From the NCBI GenBank assembly GCA_963779415.1, contig CAVZYA010000002.1:640001-704000 (forward strand): DNA of 64,000 nucleotides. Direction: 5' to 3'. Below the pieces are notes generated by a model. The model saw nothing but the letters and a program-made list of their open reading frames with translations. It had not been told where the DNA came from and did no database searches. Position 1 is the first letter of the stretch. Every line of letters begins with the position of its first letter. Made by a program: the position numbers and the translations under genes. This document shows, one piece after another, positions 1,842-43,908 of this stretch. The DNA is from an uncultured Acidobacteriota bacterium. GTDB lineage: Bacteria; Acidobacteriota; Thermoanaerobaculia; UBA5066.

Positions 1842-1890
1842 CGGTGCGCCGGGCAGGGCGTCTCATCTGTCGGGGTACTATCGAACGGAC

Positions 1891-22369: not shown

Positions 22370-25132
22370 TCAGTTCCAGAGCTGAAGGTTGAAGGCGGTC
22401 ACGAGGAAAGGCGCCATCTGCCAGCGGGTGACGTTGCCGGCGGGGCAGTACTTGCCGCCGCCGCAGCCTGCGGTGACCCCTCCCGCATAGATGTAGTGGA
22501 TGAACTTGCAGCCCCCGTCCGTCGGCGGGACGTCGCTGAAGAGGGAACTGCCGCCCAAGGTGCAGTTGTAGGGACCGACCAAAGGAACGGTTCCGCTGGC
22601 CGGAACTGCAGCGCCTGAGCCGGCCATGGCCGTAGCGAGGAAAACGGCCATCTGCCAGCGGTTGACGAGGCTGGAGGGACAGTAATTGCCGCCGCCGCAG
22701 CCGCCGGTGATTCCCCGAGCGTAGATGTAGTGGATGGACGGGCAGGCGCCGTCGGTGGGTGGCACGTCTCCGAAAAGCGAGATACCGCCGCTCGTGCAGT
22801 CATAGGGTCCGACACCGGAAACGGTGCCCGACACGGGAACCGGCACGCCGGGCCCGAGGAGAGAGGTGGCGAGGAAGACGGCCATCTGCCAGCGGGTGAC
22901 GTTTCCGGCGGGGCAGTAATTGCCGCCGCCGCAGCCTGCGGTGATGCCGTTGTGGAAGATGTTCTCGACGAAGCGGTAGGCGCCGTCGGAAGTCGGCACG
23001 TCAGTGAAGCTGTTTCCCACGTGCAGCGTCCAGCTCTTCGAAAAGCCGGTGCTCAACGTCTCGAGGAAGGTGGCGTCCCAGTGGGCGGCGGGACGGGTCG
23101 TCGGGGCGCTGACGCCGACGATGTAGCAGTTCCCCGTGGCCGTCCGGCAGTCCGTGGAAACTCCGTTCGGGATCGTTCCGTACGACGCCGCGCCGTCCGT
23201 CAGCGTGTAGTTGGCCCCCGGCGGGCCCGTGAACGCGGAGGCGGTTCCTGTCAGCGACAGCGGTGCGCCGGAGACGTTCTTCCATGACGGCGCGACAACC
23301 ACGGTCTCGCCCGGCTCGAGGACGCCATTTCCGTTCGGGTCCTCCGAGAGCGCGGTCGGAACCGCGTTGACGTACGAGAAGATCCCCACGGCGGTCGCCG
23401 ACGTGGTGTCCGGATTCGTGATGGCGACGTCGACGTATCCTGCCGCGTGCGCGGGCGTCACGGCCGTGATCTTGTTCGATGTGACGACGACCACGGAGGT
23501 GGCGGCGATCCCGCCGAACGTCACTCCGGCACCCGAAACGAAGTTCGCCCCCGCGATCGTCACGGGCGTTCCCCCCTGCGGGGCCCCGTATGACGGGGAA
23601 AGGCCGGAGAGGACCGGACGGACGAACGCGAGATCCACCGCGGCCTTCGCGTCGAGGCGCCCCCATCCGTAAACGTCGTTCGGAGGAGAGGCGGGGCCGC
23701 AGGCTGAAGAGGCGATCGGGACGGCCGAGTCGGCGAGGATCCGCTCGGTCTGGTCGATCTGCCCGACGAGGGCCGGCTGCGCGGACCAGAGGAGGGCGAC
23801 CGCGCCGGCCACGTGCGGGCCGGCCATCGAGGTCCCCGACATCGAGCCGTAGCCGCCGCCGGGAACGGAGGAGCGGACGTTCGTCCCGGGTGCCGTGATG
23901 TCGGGCTTTGTTCTTCCGCTTCCGTCGATCGTAACGGGACCGAGGCTGCTGAACCCCGCGATCGTGTCGGTGCCCGTATTCAGGGCCCCGACGGAGAAGA
24001 CCTCGTCGTAGATCGCGGGAGGATCGCTCACGCTGGAACAGCCGGGTCCGTCGTTGCCGGCCGAGACGGCCGTGAAGATTCCGGCCGCACGCTGGGCGGC
24101 GGCGGCGGCCTGAAGCGTGAGCGCGCTGCAACCCTCCGACGTCGGACAGCCCCAGGAGTTGTTCGTGACGTTCGGGGCTTTCGCCGGATCGCCTTGCGAC
24201 GGGGAGCCCCCGACCGGATAGGGAGCCAGGAAGAACTGGAAGCACTCGAGGTACGTGGCCGGCGTGCCGGCGCCGCCGTCCATGTTCCGGCACCCGATCC
24301 ACTTCGCGCCCGGCGCCATCCCGATCTGGTTCGCGCCGGCGAGGCCGAGCACCGTCCCCATCGTGTGTGTCCCGTGGCCGTAGTCGTCGCAGGGAGCTGT
24401 GGCGTCGTGCCCGCAGCTCCCGGTCGAGGAATGAATCGCGTCGTGCCAGTTGTAGTCGTGGCTGGCGACCGTGCCGTTCCAGCCGCGGTACGCGGGCTTC
24501 AACGCCGGGTGAGTCCACTCGTATCCCGTGTCCTGCCCGCCGGCGACGATCCCCTGACCGGTGTAGCCGAGAGCCCAGACCTGGGGGGCGTGGCTGTAGG
24601 CGATTCCGGGCTCGACCGTGTCGGGGCTTAGAGTCGGAAAGAGAGTTCCTCCGGGTCGGGGAAGAGAGACCAAAACCCGGGGGTTTCCCTCCACGCGCGC
24701 CACATCGGGCCTCGCGGCCAGCTCGAGAACGAGGGCGCGGCCCCCGGTGACCGCGATGGCGTTGACGATGAAGAAGGGCTCGTAGGGAACGCCGAGTTGC
24801 TTCAGGCGCTCGATAAGAGGACCCTGCGTCCCGGCCGCCGTCCCGAGGAGCGCGTCGCGGACGAATCGCCCCTTTTCCACCCGTGAAGGGAGAGCGACGG
24901 CTTCGGAAAGGTCCGCCTGCCGGGAGAGGACGACGAGGAAGTCGGTCTGGCGGCCGGATTCCGTCGTCCTCATCACCCAGTCCGAGACTTTGGCCAGGGC
25001 GGTCGCTCTGGTTTCGGGCTGCCCGGGACCGGGCTGCGACACGGCAGGGCTTACGAAAAGAAGGAAAGAGACGAGGGTGGCAGCGGTCATTCCGCCCGTC
25101 GACTTCGCGCCGAAGATCGAGGTGACTTTCAT
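22370..25132 (-). CDS. S8 subtilisin-like serine protease with IPT/TIG, Ig-like and three SLH repeats
   Basis: Catalytic DTG, HGTHTMG and GTSMAGP; signal peptide; [20 protein letters not shown] repeats. Confidence 0.92.
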   Translation of the reverse strand: MKVTSIFGAKSTGGMTAATLVSFLLFVSPAVSQPGPGQPETRATALAKVSDWVMRTTESGRQTDFLVVLSRQADLSEAVALPSRVEKGRFVRDALLGTAAGTQGPLIERLKQLGVPYEPFFIVNAIAVTGGRALVLELAARPDVARVEGNPRVLVSLPRPGGTLFPTLSPDTVEPGIAYSHAPQVWALGYTGQGIVAGGQDTGYEWTHPALKPAYRGWNGTVASHDYNWHDAIHSSTGSCGHDATAPCDDYGHGTHTMGTVLGLAGANQIGMAPGAKWIGCRNMDGGAGTPATYLECFQFFLAPYPVGGSPSQGDPAKAPNVTNNSWGCPTSEGCSALTLQAAAAAQRAAGIFTAVSAGNDGPGCSSVSDPPAIYDEVFSVGALNTGTDTIAGFSSLGPVTIDGSGRTKPDITAPGTNVRSSVPGGGYGSMSGTSMAGPHVAGAVALLWSAQPALVGQIDQTERILADSAVPIASSACGPASPPNDVYGWGRLDAKAAVDLAFVRPVLSGLSPSYGAPQGGTPVTIAGANFVSGAGVTFGGIAATSVVVVTSNKITAVTPAHAAGYVDVAITNPDTTSATAVGIFSYVNAVPTALSEDPNGNGVLEPGETVVVAPSWKNVSGAPLSLTGTASAFTGPPGANYTLTDGAASYGTIPNGVSTDCRTATGNCYIVGVSAPTTRPAAHWDATFLETLSTGFSKSWTLHVGNSFTDVPTSDGAYRFVENIFHNGITAGCGGGNYCPAGNVTRWQMAVFLATSLLGPGVPVPVSGTVSGVGPYDCTSGGISLFGDVPPTDGACPSIHYIYARGITGGCGGGNYCPSSLVNRWQMAVFLATAMAGSGAAVPASGTVPLVGPYNCTLGGSSLFSDVPPTDGGCKFIHYIYAGGVTAGCGGGKYCPAGNVTRWQMAPFLVTAFNLQLWN

Positions 25133-25286
25133 GGAACCTCTCGGCCGCGGGTCCCATGCTCCGTTCGTCCGCGAGGAACCGGAGGCTCGGACTCTGCGAC
25201 CCTTTTCTTCAGACTAACGCCGAGGAGCGGTGGATGGTCAATGAGGTAGATGGTTCACTCGCGGCCCTCCGCCGGATCGGAAATCA

Positions 25287-28200
25287 TCAGTAGAGAAGCG
25301 GGATCTGAAAAGCGGTGACGAGGAAGGGCGCCATCTGCCAGCGGGTGACGTCGCTTGCGGGGCAGTACTTGCCACCGCCACAGCCGGCGGTGACCCCTCC
25401 CGCATAGATGTAGTGGATGAACCTGCAGCCCGGGTCCGCCGGCGGGACGTCGCTGAAGAGGGAGTTGCCGCCCGAAGTACAGTCGTAGGTGCCCACACCC
25501 GGGACGGTACCGCTCGTCGGCACGGTGCCGGTCGGGCCGACCATGGCCGTGGCGAGAAAGACCGCCATCTGCCAGCGGCTGATGTTCGAGGCCGGGCAGT
25601 AGTTCCCGCCACCGCATCCGGCGGTGATTCCTGCCGCATAGATGTAGTGGATGAACTTGCAGCCCCCGTCCGTCGGCGGGATGTCGGCGAAGAGGGAGTT
25701 GCCGCCGGAGGTGCAGTTGTACGTGCCCACGCCCGGGACGATCCCGCTCGTCGGCACGGTGCCGGTCGGGCCGACCATGGCCGTGGCGAGGAAGACGGCC
25801 ATCTGCCAGCGGGTGACGTCGCTGGCGGGGCAGTAGTTGCCGCCGCCGCAGCCGGCGGTGATCAGGTTGTGGAGAAGGGTCTCGACGAAGCGGTAGGCGC
25901 CGTCGGAGACGGGCATGTCGGAAAAGCTCCGGCCGACGTGGAGCGTCCAGGTCTTGGGGAGGCCGATGCTGAGGGTCTCGAGAAAGGTGGCGTCCCAGTG
26001 GGCGGCGGGGCGGGTCGCCGGATTGGAGACGGAGAGTCGGTAAGAGGCCACCCCGACCGACCAGCTGTCGGCCGTGGCGCCGGGAGCGATGGTCCCGTAG
26101 TCGGCGGCGGAGTCGAGAAGGGAGTAGGTGGCGCCGGCCGGCCCGGTGAAGGCGGAGGCCGTTCCGGTGAGAGCCAGCGGCGACGCCCCGGTGTTCTTCC
26201 AGGAGGCGTTGACGAGGACCGTCTCACCCGGCTCGAGGATGCCGTTGACGTTCGAGCTCGTTCCGCCCGTGGCATGGGCATCCTCGACGACGCCGGTGGG
26301 CTGGACGTCCACGATCGGGACGGATGCGTTGGCCGTCGGCGAGGTGCAGCCTCCCGCGTTCGTCTCGGTCACGGTGAGGGACACGGTGCCTGAGCTTCCG
26401 GCAGTGAAGGTGATCTGGTTCGTCGTACCGCCGGACGTGATCGAGCCGTTGGTGATCCCCCAGCTGTAACTGCTCCCGGCATGGAGCGGGACGCTCGCGA
26501 CGAGTCCCGTTGCCTCGGGGAACGCAAAGGCCGGCGCCGTGATGACGGGAAGGCCCGGCACGGTGCTGACGAGGACGACCGTTTGCCCGGCGGCCGAGGT
26601 GCAGCCGGCGGCGGTCACCGTGACGCTGTAGGTTCCGGAGGCTGCTGCTGTCGCACCGGGGATCGTCGGGTTCTGCAGCGCCGATGCGAAGCCGTTGGGA
26701 CCCGACCACGCATAGGTGGCACCGGCCACCGTCGGTGTCGAGAGCGAAACCGTATCCCCGACGCAGTAGGGCCCCCCGTTGAACGCGGTGGGGGTCCACG
26801 AGCACGAGTACGTGTACGCCGACGGCAGGCTTCCCGTCTGAAGGTCGGGGTTCGTCACGGCCACGGTCACGGCCCCGGCCGCGTGGACGGGGGTGAGGGC
26901 GTGAACCGTCGTCTCCGAGACGTAGGTGATCCCGATGGCCGAGGTACCGCCGAAGGTCACCGCGGCGCCCGGCTGGAACTGGGTCCCGGAGACCGTCACG
27001 ACGGTCCCGCCCGAGACGGGTCCGTTCGCAGGAGAGACTCCCGTCACCGTCGGCGAAGGTCCCGGGCCCGGCGTCAGACGAAAGACGACCCCGCCGGCAC
27101 GAGCCCCGGCCGAATAGGTCGTCCCGTAAGAGTTCCCGTCGGATCCCTGCACGAGGTCGGCTCGCGGATCTGCTCCGTCGCTTCCCGACAGGGAGTGGAG
27201 CGTCGTCAGCGCCCCGGCCGGCGTGATCTTGAAGATCGTGCCGTATCCCTTCGTGCCACCCGAGGACGTCGTCCCATAGAACCTGCCGTCGGTTTCCTGG
27301 ACGAGACCGGCGTAGGGATACGCCCCGTCGCTGTACGCGAACGAGTGGAGCGTCGTCAGCGCCCCGGCCGACGTGATCTTGAAGATCGTGCCGTAGCCGT
27401 CCGTGCCGCCCAGGGACGTCGTCCCGTAGAAATTGCCGTCGGTCCCCTGCCTGACACCGGCCTGCGGATTCGCCCCGTCGCTTCCGGCGAAGGAGTGGAG
27501 CGTCGTGAGCGCTCCTGCCGGCGTGACCTTGAAGACCGTGCCGTAGCCGCCCGAGCCGCCCGCGTACGTCGTCCCGTAGAAGTTGCCGTCGATTGCCTGC
27601 ACGAGGCCGGCATAAGGATTCGCCCCGTCGCTCCCCGCGAACGAGTAGAGCGTCGTCAGCGTTCCTGCGGGCGTGATCTTGAAGACCGTGCCGTTTCCGC
27701 CCGAGCCGCCCGAGGACGTCGTCCCATAGAAGTTGCCGTCGGTTGCCTTCACGAGGCTGGCTCGCGGATTTGTCCCGTCACTCCCCAAAAAGGAGTGGAG
27801 CGTCGTCAGCGTCCCCGTTGGGGTGATCCTGAAGATCGTTCCAGAGTCAACAGTGCCCCCGTAGTACGTCGTCCCATAGAAGTTGCCGTCGGTTCCCTGT
27901 AGGAGGCCGGAGTACGGATTATCCCCGTCACCCCCCGCGAAAGAGTAGAGCGTTGTCAGCACCCCCGCCGGCGTGATCTTGAAGACCGTGCCGTAGTTTC
28001 CCGGGTTTCCCTGACGCGTCGTCCCGTAGAAGTTTCCGTCGGTTCCCTGCACGAGGGTGCCGAGCGGAAGTGCCGCTTCGCTGCGTGTGAACGGGTAGAG
28101 CGTCGTGAGCGCCCCCGCCGACGTGATCCTGAAGATGGTGCCGACACCGCCTGAACCTCCGTTGTACGTGGTCCCGTAGAAATTCCCGTCGGTTCCCTGC

Positions 28201-29249
28201 GCGAGGCTGGCGTACGGAGCAGCCCCATCGCCCCAGACGAACGAGTGGAGCGTCGTGAGCGTCCCGGCAAGCGTGATCTTGAACGCCGTGCCGTATCCGG
28301 CGGCTCCACCGTGAGACGTCGTCCCGTACAGGTTGCTGTCGGCTCCCCGCACGAGGCCGGCGTAGGGAGCTGCCCCGTCGCTTCCCGCGAAGGTGTAGAG
28401 CGTCGTCAGCGCCCCGCCCGGCGTGATCATGAAGACCGTGCCGTTCCCGCTCGTGCCGCCCGAGGATGCCGTCCCGTAGAAGTTCCCGTCGATTCCCTGC
28501 GCGAGGCCGGCCAGCGGATTCGTTCCTTCGCTCGCCGTAAGAGAGTGGAGCGTCGTCAGCGCCCCCGCCGGCGTGATCTGAAAAGCCGTTCCGTTTCCGC
28601 TCGTGCCGCCCAGGTACGTCGTCCCGTAGAAGTTTCCGTCGCTTCCCTTCACGAGGCCGGCGTACGGAGCCGCCCCGTCGCTCCCCGCGAACGAGTAGAG
28701 CGTCGTCAGGGCCCCCGCCGGCGTGACCCTGAAAACCGTGCCGGAACTTGCCGTGCCGCCCGCATAGGTCGTCCCGTAGAAGTTCCCGTCGGATCCCTGC
28801 ACAAGGCCGCCCTGAGGATTCGCCCCGTCGCTTCCCGCGAAGGAGTAAAGCGTCGTCAGCACCCCGGCCGTCGTAACCTTGAAAACCGTACCGCTTCCGC
28901 TCGCGCCTCCCTGAGACGTCGTCCCGTAGAGGTTCCCGTCGGTTCCCTGCACGAGCGCCGCCTGGGGAGAGCTTCCATCGCTCCCCGCGAAGGAGTAGAG
29001 GGTCGTGAGCACCCCTGCGGACGTGATGCGGTAGACGCTGCCCTGACTGTTCGTCCCGCCCTGGCTCGTCGTACCGTAGAAGTTCCCGTCACCGGCCTGG
29101 ACCAGCCCTGCCGGATACGGCTGCCCGAACGCGAAGGTATGGAGGACCGTGTAGGTCTGCGCCGCGGCCGGGGCCGCAGCGATCAGGATGGCGGAGGCGA
29201 CGGCGATCAGAACGACGTGACCGCACGCGGAGACTCTTTCGACGCGCAT
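25287..29249 (-). CDS. GloVer-type (TIGR03803-like) tandem-repeat surface protein with IPT/TIG, Ig-like and three SLH repeats
   Basis: Signal peptide ending AAAQ. 14 repeats of 'DG.NP.AGLVQG.DGNFYGTT..GG..G.GTVFKITPAG.LTTL.SF'. Same C-terminal module as its neighbours. Confidence 0.88.
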   Translation of the reverse strand: MRVERVSACGHVVLIAVASAILIAAAPAAAQTYTVLHTFAFGQPYPAGLVQAGDGNFYGTTSQGGTNSQGSVYRITSAGVLTTLYSFAGSDGSSPQAALVQGTDGNLYGTTSQGGASGSGTVFKVTTAGVLTTLYSFAGSDGANPQGGLVQGSDGNFYGTTYAGGTASSGTVFRVTPAGALTTLYSFAGSDGAAPYAGLVKGSDGNFYGTTYLGGTSGNGTAFQITPAGALTTLHSLTASEGTNPLAGLAQGIDGNFYGTASSGGTSGNGTVFMITPGGALTTLYTFAGSDGAAPYAGLVRGADSNLYGTTSHGGAAGYGTAFKITLAGTLTTLHSFVWGDGAAPYASLAQGTDGNFYGTTYNGGSGGVGTIFRITSAGALTTLYPFTRSEAALPLGTLVQGTDGNFYGTTRQGNPGNYGTVFKITPAGVLTTLYSFAGGDGDNPYSGLLQGTDGNFYGTTYYGGTVDSGTIFRITPTGTLTTLHSFLGSDGTNPRASLVKATDGNFYGTTSSGGSGGNGTVFKITPAGTLTTLYSFAGSDGANPYAGLVQAIDGNFYGTTYAGGSGGYGTVFKVTPAGALTTLHSFAGSDGANPQAGVRQGTDGNFYGTTSLGGTDGYGTIFKITSAGALTTLHSFAYSDGAYPYAGLVQETDGRFYGTTSSGGTKGYGTIFKITPAGALTTLHSLSGSDGADPRADLVQGSDGNSYGTTYSAGARAGGVVFRLTPGPGPSPTVTGVSPANGPVSGGTVVTVSGTQFQPGAAVTFGGTSAIGITYVSETTVHALTPVHAAGAVTVAVTNPDLQTGSLPSAYTYSCSWTPTAFNGGPYCVGDTVSLSTPTVAGATYAWSGPNGFASALQNPTIPGATAAASGTYSVTVTAAGCTSAAGQTVVLVSTVPGLPVITAPAFAFPEATGLVASVPLHAGSSYSWGITNGSITSGGTTNQITFTAGSSGTVSLTVTETNAGGCTSPTANASVPIVDVQPTGVVEDAHATGGTSSNVNGILEPGETVLVNASWKNTGASPLALTGTASAFTGPAGATYSLLDSAADYGTIAPGATADSWSVGVASYRLSVSNPATRPAAHWDATFLETLSIGLPKTWTLHVGRSFSDMPVSDGAYRFVETLLHNLITAGCGGGNYCPASDVTRWQMAVFLATAMVGPTGTVPTSGIVPGVGTYNCTSGGNSLFADIPPTDGGCKFIHYIYAAGITAGCGGGNYCPASNISRWQMAVFLATAMVGPTGTVPTSGTVPGVGTYDCTSGGNSLFSDVPPADPGCRFIHYIYAGGVTAGCGGGKYCPASDVTRWQMAPFLVTAFQIPLLY
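27075..29150 (-). repeat. Intragenic tandem repeat, 14 x 150 bp
   Basis: GTCCCGTAGA-like word recurs exactly every 150 nt from 27121 to 29071. Confidence 0.9.
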
Positions 29250-29459
29250 GTTTGCCCCTCTCACTGTCCTCGTGCCTTGACCGGCCGGTCCGTAAGAAGC
29301 CCGTTTCACGGGCCGAAGCGGCAGAGCGGAACCGCTTGGTTTCTGACGACCATCAGGCACTCAGTCCGCGAACTCGTCCAGGATTCTCCTTGATGAGGAG
29401 TGACGCCGGAGAGAGGCCATCTTACGCTGGAGACTCCGTGCGGCCGCCCGTTCAGGTGC

Positions 29460-32400
29460 TCAGTAGAGGAGCGGGATGTCGAATGCGGTGACGAGGAAGG
29501 GAGCCATCTGCCACCGGGTGACGTTGCTTGCGGGGCAGTACTTGCCGCCGCCACAGCCGGCGGTGACCCCTCCCGCATAGATGTAGTGGATGAACTTGCA
29601 GCCCCCGTCCGTCGGCGGGACGTCGCTGAAGAGGGAGTTGCCCCCCGAGGTGCAGTTGTAGGTGCCCACACCCGGGACGGTACCGCTCGTCGGCACGGTG
29701 CCGCTCGGACCGACCATGGCGGCCGCGAGGAAGACGGCCATCTGGTTCCGCGTGACGTTCGACGCCGGGCAGTAGTTGCCGCCGCCGCAGCCGGCGGTGA
29801 TCGCCTGGGCGTAGATGTAGTGGATGGAAGGGCAGGCGCCGTTGGTGGGCGCCACGTCTCCGAAGAGCGAGTTGCCGCCGCTGGCGCAGTCATAGGGTCC
29901 GACACCGGAAACGGTGCCCGACGCAGGAACCGGCACTCCAGGCCCGAGCAGGGACGTGGCGAGGAAGACGGCCATCTGCCAGCGGGTGACGTTGCTGGCG
30001 GGGCAGTAAATGCCGACGCCGCAGCCGGCGGTGATGCCGTTGTGGAGGAGGGTCTCGGCGAAGCGGTAGGCGCCGTCGGAGACGGGGACGTCGGTGAAGC
30101 TCTTGCCAATGTGGAGCGTCCAGCTCTTCGCGATACCGTTGCTGAGCGTCTCGAGGAAGGTGGCGTCCCAGTGAGTGGCGGGGCGGGAGACCGGGTTGGA
30201 GACGGAGAGGCGATAGGACGGCCCGCCGGCCGAGAAGCTGTCGGCGGTGGCTCCGGGGGCGATGGTGCCGTAGTCCGCCGACGAGTCGAGCAGGGAATAG
30301 GTCGCCCCGGCGAGACCCGCAAAGCCCGAAGCCGTGCCCGTGAGGGCGAGCGGGGAAGCACTGATGTTCTTCCAGGAAGGGTTGACGAGAACCGTCTCGC
30401 CCGGCTCGAGGATCGTGTTGACGTTCGAGACCGTGCCGATCGTGGCATGGGCATCTTCGACGAGGCCGGCGGGCTCGCCGCTTATGTAGACGTTGACGAT
30501 CGTGGTCGGAGAGGCGCAGCCCGTGGCGGTCGTCGTCTCCACGACGGACAGGACGGTGGATCCCGAGGTTCCCGCCGTGAAGGTGATCTGGTTCGTCGTG
30601 GTGCCGGAGGTGATCGTCCCGTTGGTGATGCCCCAGCTGTAACCGTCTCCGGCGTGGGGCAGAACGCTCGCCACGAGTCCCGTCGCTCCCGGCAGGGCCG
30701 AAGCCGGGGCCGTGATGTACGGGTTGGGAACCGGATTGACGGTGACGGACGTCGTGCCGGGGGAAGAGGCGGTGCACCCGGGGACTGTCACGATGACGCT
30801 GTAGGTCCCGGCGTTCGCCGCGGTGGCGTTCGGGATGGTCGGGTTCTGGACGGCAGAGGCGAAGCCGTTCGGACCGGTCCATGCGTACGTCGCGCCGGAG
30901 ACCGTGGGCGTCGAGAGCGAAATGGTCGCGCCGGCGCAGTAGGGCCCGGTGTTGCCGGCCGTGGGCGTGGCGGTGGTGCAGAAGAAGTTGTATCCGCCGA
31001 CGAGCGTGTAGCCCTGATTTCCCGGATTGATCACCGTGACGTCTGCCGCGCCCGAGGCGTGGGCGGGCGTCGCGGCCGTGATCGTCGTGGCGTTCACCCT
31101 GACGACCGAGGTCGCGCTTGCGCCGCCGATCTTCACCGCGACTCCGCTGGCGAAGTTCGAGCCGCTGATCGTGACGGCGGTCCCGCCGAGGGGGGTACCC
31201 GACGGCGGCGAGATCCCCGTCACCACCGGGCCGGGCACCGTTCCGAAGCAGGACGACTGGCCTTCGACGAAGCTCCGGATCGTCGTCTTCACGACCTGGC
31301 TCGGTTCGCCCGTCACGCCGAGATACATCTTGATGGCGCTGTATCCGCCGATCAGGTGGCAGTAGCTCATGACCGTCCCCTTCTCCGGGGGGACGCTCGT
31401 CGGTCCGGAGTAGCAGCCCGCCTCGCCCGCGTAGCACTTGTCGACGGGCGGGCTGTAGCAGTGGGTATGCACCGATCCGAAGTTGTGCCCCAGCTCGTGC
31501 GTGACGGCGAAGAAGTCCCAGTAGGTCGTCGAGATGTTCGGGGGAGAGACGCCGCTCAGGTTCCCGGTGACTCCGTATGAGAACCAACTGCAGAGCGAAT
31601 CGAGATATGCGATCCCTCCGCCCAGTCCCCGTCCGGACAGCATGTGTGCCGTCGTACGTGGTACGGCGGTCCGGTTCGCATTCCAGTAGGTGACGAACTC
31701 GGACAGGGCACCCGACGAATTCGTGGCCGTCCACGGGTCGTCCGACGTCGTCCAGATGGAGAGATAGTTGACCTGTTGCGTGACGAGAACGTCGCGCTGG
31801 TAGACCGCAGAGATGGCGGCGAAGAGGTCGCCGACATAACTCGTGAGATTCGGGACCGAGTTGAACTTCGCATAGAGCTCGTGGTCGGTCTCGATGGCGA
31901 TCCCCGCGTAGTACATGACGCTGCTCAGAGGAGCTGTCGGAGATTTCGGGACCAGCGCCTCCGGGGGAACCGGCAAAGCGTCCGCATCGCAACGAAAGAG
32001 CCGCATGGCATCTGGAGCATCGGTTTCCGGCGAGATCGTCCGGATGAGGGTCCGCCCTGGCGGGCCGTCCCGGTAGGCGCCACGTTCGGGCGCAATCGTC
32101 GCGACGCGGTCCTTCATGACGATGAGTCCGCGGACGGACGTCCCGAGCGCCAGGACGACGAGGGACTCTGGATCCCCGACAACGGTGCCGGTAAACCACC
32201 GGTCCGACGGCACCGGAGCGCGCGACTCCCCGAGCGGTCCGTGAACGACGATCTCGGCGTTCCCGGTGAAGACCTGGAGGGACGAAACCTCCAGCGTCAC
32301 TTCGGTCCCGTCTTCGAGGGCGATCGGCTCCGTGACGATTCTCTGACCGGCCGCAACGGTTCCTTCCAGGCCTTGGAAGGCCCGCTCGTCCACCGGTCGC

Positions 32401-32471
32401 TGGGCGGCGGCGGAACCGGCCAGAAACAGTCCCACCGTCGCGAAGACAACTGCAAGGCGAAGGGCTTTCAT
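29460..32471 (-). CDS. M12 reprolysin-like zinc metalloprotease with IPT/TIG, Ig-like and three SLH repeats
   Basis: [11 protein letters not shown] zinc motif, Met-turn GTVMSY, GGGIAYL; signal peptide; SLH repeats. Confidence 0.9.
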
Positions 32472-34198: not shown

Positions 34199-34260
34199 GC
34201 TTCGCGGAATCCTTCCGGCCTTTCCGGAACCCGGCGCGGGAGGAGAAAGAGGAGACGTCA

Positions 34261-34851
34261 ATGTCGATGAATGACCCGGACCGTGATCGGATCGAGAAGT
34301 CCCTGGAGTCGCTCTCTCGCGAGCTGCGCTGGCATCGGCGGGCGTGGCTCGTTCTCGCTCTGGCGGGTGGTGCGGTGGCGATTGCCGGAGCCGCGAAGCC
34401 TCCCGCGAGCCAGGAGCTACGCGCGACGAAGATCGTGCTGACCGATCCGTCCGGCGCCGTCCGCGGCACGCTGGGTGTCGAGGCCGACGGCACGCCCGCC
34501 CTGCGCCTCCTCGACGCGGCCGGGGTCGAGCGCCTCGCCGCGCTCGTCTCCGGGACGGGCCCCTCGATCTCGCTCCTCGAAGGGGACCGGAAGACCTCCG
34601 CGAAGCTGGTGGTCGAGGGCGGTGTTCCGCGCCTCGCCCTTTCGGACCGGACGGGGACCGACCGTCTCTGGGTCGCCGTTCGGGTCGGCTCGCCGGTCGT
34701 CCAGTTCATCGCGCCCGACGGCGTGGCGCGCTGCGGCCTCGCCACGATGAACGACGACACGGGTGTCGCTGTCGTTTCGGGCGCGAGCGGATCCGTGCCG
34801 GGCCTCGTTCTCTACAACAAGGATCGGAAGATCGTCTGGTCGGCGCCGTGA
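34261..34851 (+). CDS. Hypothetical membrane-anchored protein with beta-rich repeats
   Basis: RBS-like GAGGAG before the ATG; short coiled coil, one TM, then repeats L.L.D..G..R. Confidence 0.7.
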   Translation: MSMNDPDRDRIEKSLESLSRELRWHRRAWLVLALAGGAVAIAGAAKPPASQELRATKIVLTDPSGAVRGTLGVEADGTPALRLLDAAGVERLAALVSGTGPSISLLEGDRKTSAKLVVEGGVPRLALSDRTGTDRLWVAVRVGSPVVQFIAPDGVARCGLATMNDDTGVAVVSGASGSVPGLVLYNKDRKIVWSAP

Positions 34852-34856
34852 CCCGT

Positions 34857-35066
34857 CGAGCGCGGGATGCGCGGATCGTCGAAAAGAGCCCTCAGTTCGG
34901 CCAGTGAAGGCCGAGGGCCGCGGACAGGAATACAGCCATCTGGCCGCGTGTGACGGGCGTGTCGGGGCAGTAAGTTACCGCCGCCGCATCCGGCCGTGAT
35001 TCCCGACGCGTAGAGCGCCTCCACGAACTTGAAGAAAGGATGATTCGTGGGGACGTCGCTGAAGGT
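34857..35066. repeat. Direct repeat R2 copy 1 (partner ~37954-38162)
   Basis: SLH 3' end plus 35 bp of downstream non-coding DNA (CGAGCGCGGGATGCGCGGATCGTCGAAAAGAGCCC) repeated at ~3097-bp offset. Confidence 0.88.
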
Positions 35067-35684
35067 CGCCACGCCCGGCGCGGGAGAGACCTGGAGCTTG
35101 TAGCGGACCCGAACGCCGCGCCACCTGAGGTCCGACGTCGGGGAACTGGCGGTTCCCACCCAGACCACGTAAGAGTTCGACGTGTTGTCGACGGTCGGGG
35201 GAGAGAGGGGGTTGTGCGTGGAGACCCCCCAACCGCCGGAGCCGCTGCTCGCAGTACTCGCGAGGGTCACGTACGGATCGCCAGAGGCGGGAAACTGATA
35301 GACGAAAGCGTTCAGGTTGAGCGAGGCGTTCCAGTCGTAGTAATAGAAGTCGATGCCCGTGATCAGCGCGCCGTCCGGAAGGTTGAGCGGCGCCCAGGCC
35401 TGGGCGTTGGTTCCGCTCCCCAGAAAGACGCCGGAGCCGTTCCCGTCTTCGTTGACGATGATGTCCGGTCGGCAGGCAGTGAACGCGGCGCCTCCCACGA
35501 AGAGCGACGTCTCCGTTGCGGTTCCGTAGGCCGGCGCTGGAGAGCCGGGAGACACCGGGGCCGCCAGCGTCACCCCGGGAGTACCCGTCTCCTGGGCCTC
35601 CAGACCCGGATTCGGGGTGGCGGCACACAGAACGAGAATCGTCACTGCCGCAGGAATCACGAGACGATCGCGAAGTGCTTTCAT
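34892..35684 (-). CDS. Small secreted single-SLH protein A (frameshift ~34974)
   Basis: Signal peptide, variable beta-rich core, [40 protein letters not shown](Y)CPDTPVTRGQMAVFLSAALGLHWPN. Confidence 0.85.
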
Positions 35685-35947
35685 GGTCCTTGCCTCCTTC
35701 GAGACTCTCTCTGGAGGTCCCGGGGCTGCCGACGGAGCCGGGGCCGGTGGATTGAAGGTGACGGGTCGACGTCGCTCCTTGCCTGGGCCCGGCGAACGAC
35801 TACGGCCAGTAGAGGCCGAGGGCTGCGGAGAGGAAGACCGCCATCTGGCCGCGGGTGACGGGCGTATCGGGGCAGAAGTTGCCGCCGCCGCACCCCGCCG
35901 TGATGCCCGACGCGTAGAGGGCCTCCACGAACTTGAAGAACGGATGA
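35507..35947. repeat. Direct repeat R1 copy 1 (partner ~36407-36848)
   Basis: Near-identical block at 901-bp offset. It spans the SLH 3' end of one gene, the 115-bp spacer and the 5' signal region of the next gene. Confidence 0.9.
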
Positions 35948-36585
35948 CCGGTGGGGACGTCTCTGAAGGTCGCCACGCCCGGCGCCGGCGAGACCTGCAG
36001 CTTGTAGCGGACGCGGATGCCGCGCCACTTGAGGTCGGTAACCGGAGGCGCCCCCGTTCCCACCCAGGCCCAGTAGCTGTTTGTGTTGTTGTTCACGTTC
36101 CAGGGAGAGGACAGATCCAGGGAAACCGATCCGAACCCGGCGGTGCCGCTGCTGGTCAAGTTGGAGCCGATCTGGTTGGGCATGGATCCCACGGAATCGA
36201 CCTCGTAGATTCGGCGGAGATGTTCTGCGCGTTCGCGTCGTAATAGTAGAAGTCGAATCCCGTGATGGCCGCGCCCTGCGGGAGGTTCATGGGCGCCCAG
36301 GCGTAGGCGGCGCTCACCCCGGTGAAATAGGCGGAGCCCAACCCGTCCTGGACGACGTCGACGCTCGGAACGGCGTTGTGGAACGCCGGGCCCCCGACGT
36401 AATACGACGTCTCCGTCGCGGTTCCGTAGGCAGGCGCGGGAGATGTCGGGAGACACCGGGGCCGTCAGCATCACCCCGGGAGTACCCGTCTCCTGGGCCT
36501 CCAGACCCGGATTCGGGGTTGCGGCACACAGAACGAGAATCGTCACTGCCGCAGGAATCACGAGACGATCGCGAAGTGCTTTCAT
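35800..36585 (-). CDS. Small secreted single-SLH protein B (compensating frameshifts ~36440 and ~36212)
   Basis: Same N-terminus as protein A. The middle part is in the 36156-36341 frame (AWAPMNLPQGAAITGFDFYYYD). SLH C-terminus. Confidence 0.85.
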   Translation of the reverse strand: MKALRDRLVIPAAVTILVLCAATPNPGLEAQETGTPGVMLTAPVSPDISRACLRNRDGDVVLRRGPGVPQRRSERRRRPGRVGLRLFHRGERRLRLGAHEPPAGRGHHGIRLLLLRRERAEHLRRIYEVDSVGSMPNQIGSNLTSSGTAGFGSVSLDLSSPWNVNNNTNSYWAWVGTGAPPVTDLKWRGIRVRYKLQVSPAPGVATFRDVPTGHPFFKFVEALYASGITAGCGGGNFCPDTPVTRGQMAVFLSAALGLYWP

Positions 36586-36848
36586 GGTCCTTGCCTCCTT
36601 CGAGACTCTCTCTGGAGGTCCCGGGGCTGCCGACGGAGCCGGGGCCGGTGGATTGAAGGTGACGGGTCGACGTCGCTCCTTGCCTGGGCCTGGCGAACGA
36701 CTATTGCCAGTAGAGGCCGAGAGCCGCGGAGAGAAAGACCGCCATCTGGCCGCGGGTGACGGGCGTGTCGGGGCAGAAGTTGCCGCCGCCGCATCCCGCC
36801 GTGATGCCCGACGCGTAGAGGGCCTCCACGAACTTGAAGAACGGATGA
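36407..36848. repeat. Direct repeat R1 copy 2
   Basis: See copy 1. Confidence 0.9.
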
Positions 36849-37567
36849 GTGGTGGGAACGTCGGTGAAGGTGGCGACGACGGGTGCCGGGGACACCTGCC
36901 GTTGCCACTGGTACCGGACCTTCTGGAGCGTCAGACCCGAGGTGGTCTCGAAGTAAACCCGCTGCGTCAGGTTGCAGTCACGGTTGTTGACGGTGTAATT
37001 GGTGAGACCAACGAAATCCGTCTGGGCTCCCCCGGAGCCCGACGTGACCGACGTTGCGATCACAGTGGTTGTTGTGGGGCCTGCGGCATACGACGGCCAG
37101 CAGGTCTCGAGAAGAAAGAAATCGATATCAAATGTCGCGTTCGTGTCGTACGCCCACCAGCGGACGAACTGGAGGTTGACGCCTTCGGGAAGGTTCACCG
37201 CGGCATCTGCATAACCCTCCACCCCGGTGCGGCTGAGATTCGTGCAGCATCCTTCTTCTCCACCGTCGTATTGCCAGGGGGATGCGGCGGTGTTCACGCG
37301 GCCGACGAAAGACTTCGGGGCGAGATTGGTGTAGGAGGTTTGCAGCCCGTAGAAGTCGGGACTGGTGGGTCCGTCGGGGACTCGCGCGGCTCCGACGTAG
37401 TTCGCCACGTAAACGTTCGTGGCGTCGCGCGGGAATCCCATCTTTTCGAGCTGATTCGGATCGGAGACGAGGGTTCTCTCGCTCGCGGGTACCTGCCCCA
37501 GCGCCTTGGAGGAGAGAACTCCGGCAGCTATCGCGAGGCAGGCCAGGGCGACCAAGGCTCTTCTCAT
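36701..37567 (-). CDS. Small secreted single-SLH protein C
   Basis: Signal peptide MRRALVALAC..; NLPEGVNLQFVRWWAYD core; SLH C-terminus. Confidence 0.88.
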   Translation of the reverse strand: MRRALVALACLAIAAGVLSSKALGQVPASERTLVSDPNQLEKMGFPRDATNVYVANYVGAARVPDGPTSPDFYGLQTSYTNLAPKSFVGRVNTAASPWQYDGGEEGCCTNLSRTGVEGYADAAVNLPEGVNLQFVRWWAYDTNATFDIDFFLLETCWPSYAAGPTTTTVIATSVTSGSGGAQTDFVGLTNYTVNNRDCNLTQRVYFETTSGLTLQKVRYQWQRQVSPAPVVATFTDVPTTHPFFKFVEALYASGITAGCGGGNFCPDTPVTRGQMAVFLSAALGLYWQ

Positions 37568-37953
37568 GGGCTCTCCTTTCCCCAATGACCTGCCGAAATG
37601 TGGTTTCGGCCCGATGAGCGGTCAAGGTGACGCCACACCCGCATCGAGGCCCGCGCGACTCGCAATGCAGAAAGACGGCCGGGCGAGTCGTGGCTAAGTC
37701 CCTCTCCCTACAGTCCTTTCCACAGCCCCGGACAAGCGGCATCTTGATCGAAGAAAGCGGAAGGTCTGATGTGCAGGCATCAACAGGAGTTCTAACGTGT
37801 CAAGGCTTCCCGGAAAGCGCTCTCCCATGGGCGGCGGCATCAGCGGGCGTAGGTCGCTCAGGTGCCCGAGGGCTGCGTCCCGGGCCTCGCCCGATCAGGC
37901 CGGACAGGCCTCGGCAGCTTCCGGTCGGCCCCGTGGTCGACACGGCCAGTCGG

Positions 37954-38162
37954 CGAGCGCGGGATGCGCGGATCGTCGAAAAGAGCCCTCAGTTCGGCCA
38001 GTGAAGGCCGAGGGCCGCGGACAGGAATACAGCCATCTGGCCGCGGGTCACCGGGGTGTCCGGGCAGTAATTACCGCCGCCGCAGCCGGCCGTGATTCCC
38101 GACGCGTAGAGCGCCTCCACGAACTTGAAGAAAGGATGATTCGTGGGGACGTCGCCGAAGGT
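37954..38162. repeat. Direct repeat R2 copy 2
   Basis: See copy 1. Confidence 0.88.
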
Positions 38163-38780
38163 GGCAACGCCCGGACCCGGCGAGACCTGAAGGTGGTAGT
38201 AGACGCGAATTCCAGCCGCTCTGAGGTTTGAAGTGTGGTCCGCGGAAAAGGCCAGCCACAGCCAGTAATTGGTCGTCTGGTTGTCGATGACGAGCGTGGA
38301 ACCGGGGGTGACGGAGGTGAAGCCGCACCCCGGAGTCGCGGCGAGGCCGGTGTTTCCAATGGGTGTGACGTTTCCTGAGCTCGTGCCTCCAGCCGTAGCG
38401 GTCGCCAACCCAAAGAGAAGATTACCGGTGGCGATATTGTCGCACGCGTCCAGCTCGACCGAGTCCACGACCACTCCCGTCGGAAGCTGCACCTGTGCCC
38501 ACCAATCAGCCGAGCCCGTTGTGTTCTGGTAGAAGCTGATACCCGACCCGGTAAACACGCTCAAGGAATAGGTCGAATTGATCGGCCTGAATTCCGTAAT
38601 CGACACCTTCTGGATGATCTGGGAACCGGTTCCGTACTCCGGCGCCGGGGCCTGGACCTGCACAGGCGGGTGTGGGGCCTGGGATCCCGCCAGCGTCGAC
38701 TGGGCGACGCCGGTCGAGGAGATTCCGAGGAGCAGAATGGCCGCAGCCGGAATCACGAGCCGATCACCGAGTGTTTTCAT
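37989..38780 (-). CDS. Small secreted single-SLH protein D
   Basis: MKTLGDRLVIPAA signal; QLPTGVVVDSVELDACD core; SLH C-terminus. Confidence 0.88.
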   Translation of the reverse strand: MKTLGDRLVIPAAAILLLGISSTGVAQSTLAGSQAPHPPVQVQAPAPEYGTGSQIIQKVSITEFRPINSTYSLSVFTGSGISFYQNTTGSADWWAQVQLPTGVVVDSVELDACDNIATGNLLFGLATATAGGTSSGNVTPIGNTGLAATPGCGFTSVTPGSTLVIDNQTTNYWLWLAFSADHTSNLRAAGIRVYYHLQVSPGPGVATFGDVPTNHPFFKFVEALYASGITAGCGGGNYCPDTPVTRGQMAVFLSAALGLHWPN

Positions 38781-38863
38781 TGTTCCTTCTTCCTTGGACG
38801 AGTTTTTTGAAGGTCGCCGGGATCTTCGGCTGGCGCGGGGAAATCGACGGGACGGACGAGGCC

Positions 38864-38896
38864 TCAGTTTGGCCAGTGCAGTCCGAGCGCCGAGGC
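38864..38896 (-). pseudogene. Remnant 3' end of a deleted SLH paralog
   Basis: Reverse complement reads gcc tcg gcg ctc gga ctg cac tgg cca aac tga = ASALGLHWPN*, matching the ends of proteins A and D. Confidence 0.7.
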
Positions 38897-39071
38897 GGTT
38901 GTTCACTCCCCTGCCGGGCGCCCGGGGATGCCGGTTCCGGTCGGCAGCGAACGGTCCCCCGGCTCGGAAGAGTCATTCGTAAGCGCATGGCGTCGATGAC
39001 CCCCTCCAGAAACGGGAGCGCCCGCCGGGTTCTCCGGCGGGCGCTCCGCTCCGCGAACTCGTTGTCTCAAA

Positions 39072-39116
39072 TCAGTGCGACACGTGCAATCCAGGCGCCG
39101 CGGCGAGGAAGACGGC
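39072..39116 (-). pseudogene. Degenerate remnant 3' end of a second SLH paralog
   Basis: Encodes AVFLAAAPGLHVSH*, similar to AVFLSAALGLHWPN*. Confidence 0.5.
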
Positions 39117-39159
39117 CGCAAGCCGAGGTGCCGGACTGGACGTGTCAATCATGCCGGAA

Positions 39160-39987
39160 TCAGTTCCACTGCAAGCCGAGGGCCGAAGCAAGGAAGACGG
39201 CCATCTGGCCGCGGGTGACAGGGGTGTTGGGGCAGAAGTTGCCGCCTCCGCATCCGGCCGTGATGCCCGACGCGTAGAGCGCCTCCACGAACTTGAAGTA
39301 GGTACTACCCGTGGGGACGTCGCTGAAAGTCGCCACCCCGGGACCCGGGCTGACCTGGAGGATGTACCCAACGATCATCCCGGCCACCCTCTCCGTTCCG
39401 TCCGAGGCGTTGGGTTCGGCCAGCGCGATGAACTGGTTGTTGAAGTTGTCGACAACGAGGTTGTCGGCCGAGAGATTTGCCGTCACGAAGTTGACGCCCG
39501 TACTTTGGAAAGCCAGGGTCGAGCAGATAAAGCCCGGCACACCGCAGGCACTACTGGTCGGGTAGTATGTGCAGCCAGAGCCTGTCCAGGGGCACTTGGT
39601 CAGGCTCCCAAATGTCCGGGCAGAGGCCGAGTTGTCGTAGTAATCCAGCTCCAGGTAGATGACTTTGGCGCCGCTGGGAAGGCGAACGGGGGCCACCAAG
39701 TCGGTAGCACCGCTGGTCGGCCAGCGCTGGCCGCGCCCAAAGTCGTTGCTGGTGTAAGGGTTAGTGCTGGCCCACGGGAAAAACGAACTTGGGGGGATCA
39801 TGACGTAAGAGACCGCGGAACCGCCGTACGTGTCGGGCAGGTTGGGTTTCGGGGGAACGGTTGTCGTTTGCTGTCCCTCCATCGTGCTCCACGGGATGTC
39901 GGAAGCATTCTGGGCCATCGCCGGTCCCGCCATCAGGACCGCCGAAACCAGAACCGTCAGGAAAATTCCCATCACTGTTTTCTTCAT
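39160..39987 (-). CDS. Small secreted single-SLH protein E
   Basis: AGGAGG RBS; signal MKKTVMG..AMAQ; RLPSGAKVIYLELDYYD core; SLH C-terminus. Confidence 0.88.
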   Translation of the reverse strand: MKKTVMGIFLTVLVSAVLMAGPAMAQNASDIPWSTMEGQQTTTVPPKPNLPDTYGGSAVSYVMIPPSSFFPWASTNPYTSNDFGRGQRWPTSGATDLVAPVRLPSGAKVIYLELDYYDNSASARTFGSLTKCPWTGSGCTYYPTSSACGVPGFICSTLAFQSTGVNFVTANLSADNLVVDNFNNQFIALAEPNASDGTERVAGMIVGYILQVSPGPGVATFSDVPTGSTYFKFVEALYASGITAGCGGGNFCPNTPVTRGQMAVFLASALGLQWN

Positions 39988-42114: not shown

Positions 42115-42444
42115 CTAGAAGAGGTGGGACTTGAGCGCCGACGCGACGTGACGCCGGTTGGAAGCGGACAGCGCCCCGATTCGTCGGAGCAAGAGTCGGG
42201 TATCCAGCGTGAAGAGCTTCAGGCGGACGATGCAAGGAAGAGGAAGGCCGGCTGCAGCCGTCTCCTCGATCTCGACGTCGCCGGGCCAGGCGTGATGCGC
42301 CTTCGTCGTGATCATGGCGAGGACGACGTGGCCTGAAGCGTGGAAGGTCTTGCGGCTCAGGACGAGGGCGGGGCGGCGTTTCGCTCCGGCCTTCTCGGAG
42401 AAGGGGAACGGAACGACGACGACGTCCCAGAGGTCACAGATCAC
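42115..42444 (-). CDS. PemK/MazF-family toxin
   Basis: DVVVVPFPFSE...KRRPALVLS and AMITT motifs. Confidence 0.9.
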   Translation of the reverse strand: MICDLWDVVVVPFPFSEKAGAKRRPALVLSRKTFHASGHVVLAMITTKAHHAWPGDVEIEETAAAGLPLPCIVRLKLFTLDTRLLLRRIGALSASNRRHVASALKSHLF

Positions 42445-42661
42445 GGAAGGCCTCGTTGTCGTCGGCGGACCCCCATTCCTCGAGAGTCTCCGCGACGGCG
42501 AAGTGGAAGGCTGCGTCGAAGGGCTCGGCCCGCCTCAGGATCGCCCGGTCGTCCTTCACTTCGTACGAAACGAGGTCTCCCGGGGAGAGATGGAGAGCCT
42601 CGCGTACCTCGACCGGGATGGTGACCTGCCCTTTTCCGGAGAGTCGGCTGGTCTTCTTCAT
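42434..42661 (-). CDS. AbrB/MazE-family antitoxin
   Basis: SGKGQVTIPVEVREALHLSPGD; overlaps the toxin start. Confidence 0.9.
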   Translation of the reverse strand: MKKTSRLSGKGQVTIPVEVREALHLSPGDLVSYEVKDDRAILRRAEPFDAAFHFAVAETLEEWGSADDNEAFRDL

Positions 42662-42738
42662 CTCTTTACTCTTTACGTAAAGAATACTCTGCCGTTTCCG
42701 TCGAGACAACCCGAATCGTCGTGGTAGGAACCCGGACC

Positions 42739-43908
42739 TCAGAACGTCAGCAGCCGGTGATATGTCCCGACGACGTCGAGGGAGGCGTACGCCGCGGCGC
42801 GTCCCCTTCCGCCTTCGGCCAGCTTGGCACGCGTCCGGTCGCTCCGCCAGAGAAGCTCCAGCGCGTCGGCGGTCGAGGTCTCGTCCTTCGGATTGAAGTA
42901 GAGGGCATCTTCCCGGGCGAGTTCCGTGAGCGCGGGTATCGCGGAGCAGGCCACGGGGGTTCCGAGCGCCATCGCCTCGAGGACGGGGATGCCGAATCCC
43001 TCGAACAGGGACGGGAAGACGAGAAAGCGCGCGCCCTGGAGGAGCGCCGTCACGTGAGCGTCCGGAAGATAGGGAAAGAGACGGACGGCGCCGGCGAGGC
43101 CCCGCTGGCGGACGGCGGCGAGAAGCCCCTCGCGGCCGGCATCCAGCGCGCCGCAAAGGACGAGCTTGAGGTCGGGAGCGGCGCGTCGCGCGCGGACGAG
43201 GGCGGAAAGGAGCCGGTCGTGGTTCTTGTGGGGCCAGTAGTTGGCGGGGTAGACGGCGAACCCGTCCGGTGAGAGATCGAGCCGGGAAAGTATGTCGGCC
43301 TGCTCCGCAGTCCGCAGAGGCTCGCGCGGCGCACCCGTGACGGGGGGAAGGACGGTGATCCGCGCGGGGTCCAGCCCCGCTTTCGCGACGCCGTCCCGCT
43401 TCGTCGCTTCCGAGACGGCGACGAGCCGATCGACGCGGCCGAGATCCCGCCGGAAAGCCGCCCGGCGCCTTCGCTCCTTCCCGTCGAAGAATTTCGGATA
43501 CGAAAGCTCCTGAAAATCATGCGCCACGGCCAGGTGCGGGAGATCGGGCTCGTGGAAGAGAGCCGTGAAGAGCGGGCTGAAGAGAACGTCCGCCCCGCGG
43601 CTGCGAAGAGAGTCCCGGTCGGGAACCCACCGCGCGACGGCGGGGGGGAGCCGGCGCAGTTCCCGGCGGAGGCGGCGGGGCTCGACGATCTCCTCTCCGA
43701 GGATGGCGACGTCGAGGTTCTCTCTCCGGAGCGGCTCGAGGAGCGGCGCGGCCTCCCTCTTCACGAGGACGGTATAGCGGTGCGCGTCGGTCCGGCCGGC
43801 GAGCGCTCCGAGAAGGCGGAGGACGAAACGGCCGGCGCCGCCGCCCGAGCCGTCGGGCGGCAGCGTGGAGAGGTCGACGAAGACGCGGCGTTCCGTCCCG
43901 GCGGCCAC
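42739..43908 (-). CDS. GT4 family glycosyltransferase
   Basis: HDFQ, AVSEAT, WPHKNH, FPSLFEGFGIPVLEAMALGTPV. Confidence 0.9.
   Translation of the reverse strand: MAAGTERRVFVDLSTLPPDGSGGGAGRFVLRLLGALAGRTDAHRYTVLVKREAAPLLEPLRRENLDVAILGEEIVEPRRLRRELRRLPPAVARWVPDRDSLRSRGADVLFSPLFTALFHEPDLPHLAVAHDFQELSYPKFFDGKERRRRAAFRRDLGRVDRLVAVSEATKRDGVAKAGLDPARITVLPPVTGAPREPLRTAEQADILSRLDLSPDGFAVYPANYWPHKNHDRLLSALVRARRAAPDLKLVLCGALDAGREGLLAAVRQRGLAGAVRLFPYLPDAHVTALLQGARFLVFPSLFEGFGIPVLEAMALGTPVACSAIPALTELAREDALYFNPKDETSTADALELLWRSDRTRAKLAEGGRGRAAAYASLDVVGTYHRLLTF

Follow-up and report, generated by a model that had tools for sequence, protein, structure and literature searches.

The window analysed here, a 64,000-nucleotide stretch of contig CAVZYA010000002.1 (assembly GCA_963779415.1) from an uncultured Acidobacteriota bacterium, contains an array of five genes, A to E, at positions 34892–39987, all on the minus strand and arranged head to tail. 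These genes quite probably form a birth-and-death array of paralogous proteins, anchored by an SLH domain and headed by a domain that resembles carbohydrate-binding modules (CBMs), with a few footprints of gene conversion and a history of ordinary recombination. There is no evidence of programmed variation. The window sits on contig 2 of a 4.36-Mb genome assembled in three contigs (68% G+C, 92.4% complete).

Five tandem genes with a common anchor and divergent heads

The array genes, from E to A, are as follows.

39160–39987, minus strand: gene E, 275 aa; signal peptide, divergent core and one C-terminal SLH domain (E = 6.7e-11); intact
37989–38780, minus strand: gene D, 263 aa; intact; the protein used for the fold and trimer models
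36701–37567, minus strand: gene C, 288 aa; intact; the most divergent core; SLH domain with E = 3.6e-12
35800–36585, minus strand: gene B; the listed open reading frame (ORF) of 261 aa is open, with about 36208–36444 read out of frame
34892–35684, minus strand: gene A; one extra base in the SLH tail; core nearest to that of B, 3' end nearest to that of D

Each gene is preceded by an AGGAGG-like Shine–Dalgarno site and encodes a protein made up of a signal peptide, a core of some 150–170 aa and a ~65-aa tail that extends from a QVSP motif to the stop codon. A single Pfam SLH domain (PF00395) is found in each of A–E, scoring 24–46.5 bits for a cut-off of 20.8 (E-values from 3.8e-5 to 3.6e-12), the low score of A being due to its frame break. 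Altogether, the genome contains seven full-length paralogues, i.e. the five array genes and two intact copies dispersed on contigs 1 and 3 (L001:3388–4224 and L002:7154–7972). An earlier note, made from the letters of the window, had described five SLH genes with an almost invariant tail and divergent cores of about 150 aa that keep only a residue skeleton. This description is accurate for the proteins: the tail is near-invariant, the amino-acid identity of the cores to that of D is only 20–29%, and the ten columns that are invariant in an alignment of six cores (P, G, F, G, A, L, P, G, D and N) match the skeleton. It does not extend to the DNA, since the five tail copies are 80–93% identical at that level.

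To compare the selection acting on cores and tails, as the earlier note had suggested, we computed Nei–Gojobori distances (non-synonymous, dN; synonymous, dS) on codon alignments of the seven paralogues. Tail pairs display a dN of 0.01–0.17 and a dS of 0.29–1.17, which indicates that the tails are old and owe their conservation to purifying selection at the protein level rather than to continuous homogenisation. The cores, for their part, diverge fast, with a dS above 1.1 in all pairs but A–B (dN 0.43, dS 0.55).

Footprints of recombination between the copies

Two long repeats cross the gene boundaries, and two probable remnants of tail ends lie in the spacer between E and D.

35498–35976, minus strand: R1 copy at the B–A junction; last ~175 nt of the B tail, 115-nt spacer, and Shine–Dalgarno site, signal peptide and N-terminus of A
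36399–36877, minus strand: R1 copy at the C–B junction, offset by 901 nt from the B–A copy
34854–35113, minus strand: R2 copy in A; tail and ~40 nt past the stop codon
37951–38209, minus strand: R2 copy in D, offset by 3097 nt
38867–38896, minus strand: probable tail-end relic with a stop codon, ~85 nt upstream of the D start; identical to A/D at 8/10 residues (E = 0.002, the search space being very small)
39084–39116, minus strand: second probable tail-end relic, in the E–D spacer; 9/11 residues (E = 0.016); the sixth copy in the repeat search

The two R1 copies (~440 bp) are 96–97% identical, the identity ranging from 82 to 100% in 40-nt windows over 35498–35976, with a single mismatch within the 220 nt of 35570–35789 and 14 within 35546–35960; the repeat search returned a stretch of 300 nt at 97%. 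The R2 copies are 91.9% identical over 260 nt (20 mismatches). They contain a 36-nt exact repeat that spans the stop codon, as well as about 100 nt that run identically over the stop codon into a 3' flank common only to A and D. The alignments thus recover both repeats at the places given in the earlier note, including the extent of R1 from the tail through the spacer to the signal peptide, R2 being somewhat longer than the ~210 bp proposed there. A long frame convergent with the array (34260–34851, plus strand), whose last ~200 codons resemble a real membrane-anchored protein devoid of any Pfam match, ends about 40 nt from the stop codon of A, which places the A/D-type flank between two convergent genes.

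A and B align at 82% identity over 1113 nt with 15 gaps; since they are homologous over their whole length, they are the youngest pair. Their divergence is, however, uneven: dS is 0.04 in the signal-peptide region, and the spacer upstream is virtually identical, as compared to 0.55 in the core and 0.42 in the tail (tail dN 0.035). This rules out even divergence after one duplication, and the simplest reading of the sequences is a later conversion tract of about 300–440 nt at the 5' junction of A and B. Kinship between tails also conflicts with kinship between cores: the core of A is nearest to that of B, but its tail is nearest to that of D (dS 0.29), the tail of B being nearest to that of C (0.33).

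More specifically, the last 280 nt of A contain 47 sites that discriminate B from D, and these fall into 12 runs (permutation p = 0.00016). The blocks are B-like at 35130–35058, D-like at 35046–34977, B/C-like at 34974–34952 and D-like again at 34934–34860, flank included; a chi-square test on them gives p = 3e-6, a value that is overstated because the blocks were set after viewing the data. The claim that A shares its 5' end with B and its 3' end with D is upheld, and together with the dS contrast in R1 and the conflict between tail and core kinship, the mosaic attests to the recombination between copies that the earlier note had suspected. Finally, the two relic tail ends suggest earlier gene loss in the E–D spacer.

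No evidence of a programmed switch

The earlier note went further and likened the array to antigenic-variation systems in which cores are swapped. If surface variation were programmed, the tails and junction repeats would serve as homology arms for frequent swapping, expansion or excision of cores, thereby changing the head displayed; we consider this very improbable. Such a process would account for the constant–variable–constant layout, in which the tails, R1 and R2 provide conserved flanks around a variable segment, as well as for the mosaic tail of A, the relics and the fast evolution of the heads, and the 220 nt of R1 with one mismatch and the ~100 identical nt of R2 have a length that suits RecA-type recombination. 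Yet the array lacks the asymmetry between an expression site and silent cassettes: A–E are complete genes, all full length with their own start codon, Shine–Dalgarno site and signal peptide, so that none is a silent cassette. They lie on one strand, and a search of 32–43 kb for inverted repeats of at least 30 nt returned 0, so that neither the inverted repeats nor the opposed homologues that flank a movable promoter in S-layer switching of the Campylobacter fetus sap type are present. No recombinase, integrase or reverse-transcriptase domain was detected in the 31 large ORFs of the window, as the earlier note had stated for recombinases, and no PF00078 match was found in the genome (92.4% complete); the reverse transcriptase and the template/variable repeat pair of a diversity-generating retroelement were thus not found. 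Apart from the A–B paralogy, there is no repeat pair inside the cores, which otherwise show no DNA similarity, so that no donor–recipient pairs are visible. Finally, the tail dS values imply that, over evolutionary time, exchanges are rare. The lengths of R1 and R2 would allow RecA-type recombination to delete or duplicate units of 0.9 kb or 3.1 kb now and then, but this potential is a by-product of any tandem repeat. In conclusion, the comparison with antigenic variation holds for occasional recombination between copies and finds no support as regards a cassette system.

Frame breaks in A and B

Gene A contains one extra base at 34971–34973, within the SLH tail, and in gene B there is one base too many at 36444 and one too few near 36208, so that about 80 codons of its 261-aa ORF are out of frame. 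The true frame of B appears there as a separate ORF (36156–36464), with the core match in the other frame at 36222–36467. We think that these breaks are probably consensus errors of the assembly because (i) the single-copy pyruvyl-transferase gene of the window is also split between frames; (ii) completeness is just 92.4% despite assembly in three contigs; and (iii) a metagenome contig (run X2, depth 2.9) is devoid of exactly one base at 34974. A GC-phase frame plot over the window was too noisy for counting frame breaks.

A wider artefact, in which reads from paralogues or strains were mixed so as to create the frame breaks, the B/C-like patch in A and perhaps sharper R1 and R2 repeats, seems quite unlikely to us, although the three arguments above also speak for it. 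In addition, the extra base of A coincides with the border of the 23-nt B/C-like patch within D-like sequence, a position that would fit patchy heteroduplex repair or a chimeric consensus alike, and a neighbouring glycosyltransferase-like gene seems to change frame twice, albeit with weak support. However, unique cores flank R1 and R2, a three-contig assembly spans both repeats, and the mismatches between their copies (14 and 20) are what one would expect of real, diverged repeats. Moreover, the constant-tail pattern recurs in other genomes, the housekeeping genes at 46.8–64 kb are all intact, and the X2 contig could stem from paralogue D or from another strain.

Alternatively, the frame breaks could be real and A and B young pseudogenes in an array that is being lost. 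Three frame breaks in two adjacent genes, a dN/dS ratio of 0.77 in the A–B core, i.e. near neutrality, and the earlier gene loss suggested by the relics would all agree with such a decay. We nevertheless hold it to be unlikely: the tails of A and B are under strong purifying selection, a gene outside the array is frame-broken too, one contig is free of the extra base of A, and C, D and E, like both dispersed paralogues, are intact.

The head is predicted to be a CBM-like β-sandwich

An AlphaFold model of D was built on a 70-sequence alignment (pLDDT 81.7, pTM 0.71). In this model, residues 51–198 form a β-sandwich, and the tail contains two helices. The best Foldseek matches in the PDB are CBM86, CBM6, CBM35, CBM22 and CBM36 (E-values of 2e-5 and weaker), followed by ephrin-receptor ligand-binding domains and APC10, with TM-scores normalised to the target of up to 0.66. 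VIA-align gives Z-scores of 11.4 (7zvo_A, 123 residues aligned, rmsd 2.6), 10.9 (CBM16) and 10.6 (CBM22), Z still being about 9 at rank 50, and nearly all matches are carbohydrate-binding modules. The core-fold prediction proposed in the earlier note thus yields a β-sandwich, which we assign, on the strength of the model, to the CBM6/35/22-like type; by the same token, the heads probably bind a glycan or another surface ligand.

The family is large and unannotated. No Pfam CBM family matches A–E at E ≤ 1 or 28 core homologues at E ≤ 0.01, and no Pfam family at all covers the core in A–E or in any of these 28, the domains found beside it in the latter being SLH (nine), Peptidase_C25 (one) and a MopE motif (one). 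When 1.84 billion representatives were searched with a profile built from six cores, 5647 representative clusters matched at E ≤ 1e-3, of which 1134 reached E ≤ 1e-10. The core family is common in soil metagenomes. A Protein Atlas look-up of the D core returned only unnamed clusters (0.91), the nearest relatives of D in a protein search (69%, 61% and 52% identical) lie on short contigs, and literature searches on SLH proteins and on tandem surface paralogues gave no description of the core family.

Among the best 150 core homologues, 62 by manual count carry three cores in tandem, P0009 and P0007 being examples; these secreted proteins are about 390–990 aa long, mostly 440–640, and no SLH domain was found in the four that were scanned against Pfam. 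P0009 is modelled as a single rigid body (pLDDT 92.7, pTM 0.90), which suggests that it is a single-chain version of a three-head assembly. A Foldseek search with the whole three-core protein returned single-chain jelly-roll pseudo-trimers (4ind, 4zch and 5kca) among its hits, with TM-scores of at most 0.25 and hence no support for such a match. In another homologue, P0071 (988 aa), the core is fused to a Peptidase_C25 of the gingipain type, propeptide included, implying that the head has been reused as an accessory module of secreted proteases.

A single SLH unit and a predicted trimer

A functional SLH module comprises three SLH units, whereas each array protein carries one; consequently, a trimer is the most likely working form of such a protein. 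In SlpA and in the endolysin LysBT1, single SLH domains are reported to trimerise into a three-prong spindle (PMC12285257). When three copies of residues 45–263 of D were modelled together, the scores were 0.94, 0.93 and 0.93, as compared to 0.00 for the best of three controls; between runs, at least 81% of contacts agree, with a partner pLDDT of at least 90. In a calibration, the same mark was reached by 20/30 solved same-chain pairs and by 1/23 single chains, counts that hold only roughly for the D trimer because two copies, not three, were used. The predicted interface involves tail residues 217–263 and parts of the core. The models indicate that D most likely forms a homotrimer with a three-prong SLH spindle, and the relatives with three cores in one chain offer, by analogy, an independent hint that three heads come together.

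The idea that the conserved core skeleton corresponds to the trimer interface was rejected: column entropy is 2.64 at the interface and 2.57 in the rest of the core (Mann–Whitney p = 0.20). The SLH units of the window and of the two dispersed paralogues display two cysteines in a G-C-G-G-G-N-[FY]-C-P loop, as well as TRGQ in place of the TRAE motif named in PMC12285257. Judging from the sequences, these cysteines could make a lineage-specific disulfide or a metal site.

Similar arrays in other genomes

The core profile matches 10 of 41 genomes, including the source genome, and 9 of the 30 high-quality ones; by family, with the source genome left out, the counts are 4/24, 5/9 and 0/7. Five other genomes contain tandem runs, with sizes of 3 and 2 genes; 6 and 3; 6; 5 and 2. 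In the arrays found elsewhere in the order, DNA identity is 75–89% between tails, and no DNA similarity links the cores. The combination of a constant tail and a variable core is therefore a property of the family, kept by selection on the anchor, and not specific to this locus; the same holds for tandem turnover. In genome G039 (L019:7603–10050), two adjacent members are 90% identical over 1.1 kb, the mark of a recent tandem duplication, and to judge by this pair, gene birth is ongoing in the family. Both copies are intact, with a core dN/dS of 0.43 and a tail dN of 0.

The best genome of the same genus (G003) is not syntenic: the flanking glycosyltransferase is 35% identical, and the LEA_2 neighbour was not found there. 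A scan of metagenome contigs yielded 47 loci, with a best full-length identity of 46%. Among the 21 of them that are at least 3 kb long, nine contain two or more core hits, a weak indication since overlapping frames and repeated contigs are still included.

A locus devoted to the cell envelope

The first 46.8 kb of the window form a cell-envelope locus, of which the following features are relevant here.

2–1759: SLH protein
1846–3100, plus strand: CsaB-like polysaccharide pyruvyl-transferase gene (PF04230, 88 and 48.5 bits), split over two frames near 2660
22370–25213, minus strand: S8 subtilase with TIG and three SLH units
25287–29360, minus strand: TIG/PKD protein with three SLH units
29460–32471, minus strand: reprolysin-like M12 metalloprotease with TIG/PKD and three SLH units

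CsaB-type pyruvyl transferases make the ligand of SLH domains. In the gene found here, positions 1–220 of PF04230 are encoded in one frame and positions 232–280 in another, a split that reflects either an assembly indel or a real inactivation. The three consecutive SLH exoproteins suggest a wide use of SLH modules for holding enzymes at the surface. The locus also holds glycosyltransferases, a sulfatase, a MazF-type gene, further glycosyltransferases and a GDP-mannose dehydratase.

The glycosyltransferase-like gene at 3740–5616 (plus strand) apparently uses three frames, with changes near 4230 and 4500 followed by a GT2 domain; these breaks are insecure, as a weak Pfam hit comes from the last piece only. 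About 2 kb from the array lies a MazF/PemK-type toxin gene (42115–42534, minus strand). An ORF that overlaps it and extends just upstream (42434–43156, minus strand) resembles, by eye only, an AbrB/SpoVT-type antitoxin in its C-terminal part. No Rfam match was found in 30–44 kb. Terminator-like sites number 2, fewer than the mean of 4.8 obtained after shuffling, and the one promoter-like site is upstream of E.

A model for the array and its significance

In the model that we favour, each protein would be exported by its Sec signal peptide and anchored by its single C-terminal SLH domain, the three tails of a trimer forming a spindle that would bind a pyruvylated cell-wall polysaccharide. Purifying selection for anchoring and trimerisation would keep the tail near-invariant while the heads evolve fast. 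The array would grow, shrink and be patched by homologous recombination between tails and junctions, through unequal crossing-over, deletion and short conversion tracts, so that R1, R2, the mosaic tail of A and the two relic tail ends would be footprints of array recombination and not parts of a switching machine.

Several points weigh against this model or against parts of it. Regarding the heads, the shared fold is in itself no proof of carbohydrate binding, which is deduced from the fold alone. Regarding the anchor, the D trimer has been modelled rather than measured; likeness to solved SLH trimers may account for the SLH part of its score, and since entropy is not lower at the interface, the core–core contacts are devoid of evolutionary support. 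The TRAE motif of SLH domains is reported to be implicated in wall-polymer binding (PMC12285257), but all seven paralogues read TRGQ at this position, thus keeping T and R but not A and E. Moreover, the pyruvyl-transferase gene expected to supply the ligand is itself frame-broken in the assembly. As for the history of the array, real pseudogenes would fit the dN/dS ratio of the A–B core too, and metagenome cover of the array is limited to two runs with 5–6% of sampled words, in contigs of 150–200 nt only, with no joints reported and no contig over the frame breaks of B.

The array itself is ordinary biology, a set of duplicated genes for surface proteins with a conserved anchor, and the main yield of this work is a large family of head domains without Pfam annotation. 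If the heads bind glycans, this family could be a main way for poorly studied soil bacteria to attach ligands or substrates at their surface, and the conserved tail would be a convenient handle for protein display on such cells. A bolder view, to which we grant a low probability, is that tail and junction act as portable homology arms that exchange heads among paralogues or co-existing strains, so that the array would serve as a natural cassette system for diversifying a receptor or lectin that is trimeric and anchored to the wall, with the frame breaks of A and B as real on/off states. If so, diversification might occur, for instance, under phage or predator pressure or for a wider range of ligands.

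Comparison with known systems

The array can be compared with four kinds of known systems. The first are the antigenic-variation systems of Borrelia (vlsE/vls), Neisseria (pilE/pilS) and Treponema (tprK). As in vls, pilS and tprK, variable segments lie between conserved sequences, and there are signs of segment exchange among copies. Unlike these systems, the array comprises neither silent truncated cassettes nor a single expression site, its exchanges are rare, and it does not belong to a host-associated pathogen.

The second are wall-anchored families such as the SLH proteins of Bacillus anthracis (BSLs) and the CWB2-anchored Cwp family of Clostridioides difficile. The array resembles them in combining a conserved, non-covalent wall anchor with diverse heads, in the number of paralogues per genome and in its clustering with genes for the anchoring polysaccharide, represented in the window by the pyruvyl transferase and the glycosyltransferases. 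It differs from them in that the anchor is a single C-terminal SLH domain rather than three, in that the heads belong to one unannotated fold family, and in the tightness of the tandem arrays.

The third are SlpA and LysBT1, with which the array proteins share one SLH unit per chain and a homotrimeric spindle, the latter being only predicted for D; in the array, however, the SLH domain is joined to a CBM-like β-sandwich in place of a β-barrel with coiled coil or an amidase. The last are the modules CBM6, CBM35, CBM36, CBM22 and CBM16 (e.g. 7zvo_A, 2cdo_A and 4xun_A), which superimpose on the modelled core with Z-scores of 10.4–11.4 over 121–133 aligned residues (rmsd 2.6–3.8). In contrast to these modules, the array core is only 7–14% identical, has no Pfam CBM match and is not attached to a glycoside hydrolase, and it is predicted to adopt a trimeric or three-in-one-chain arrangement.

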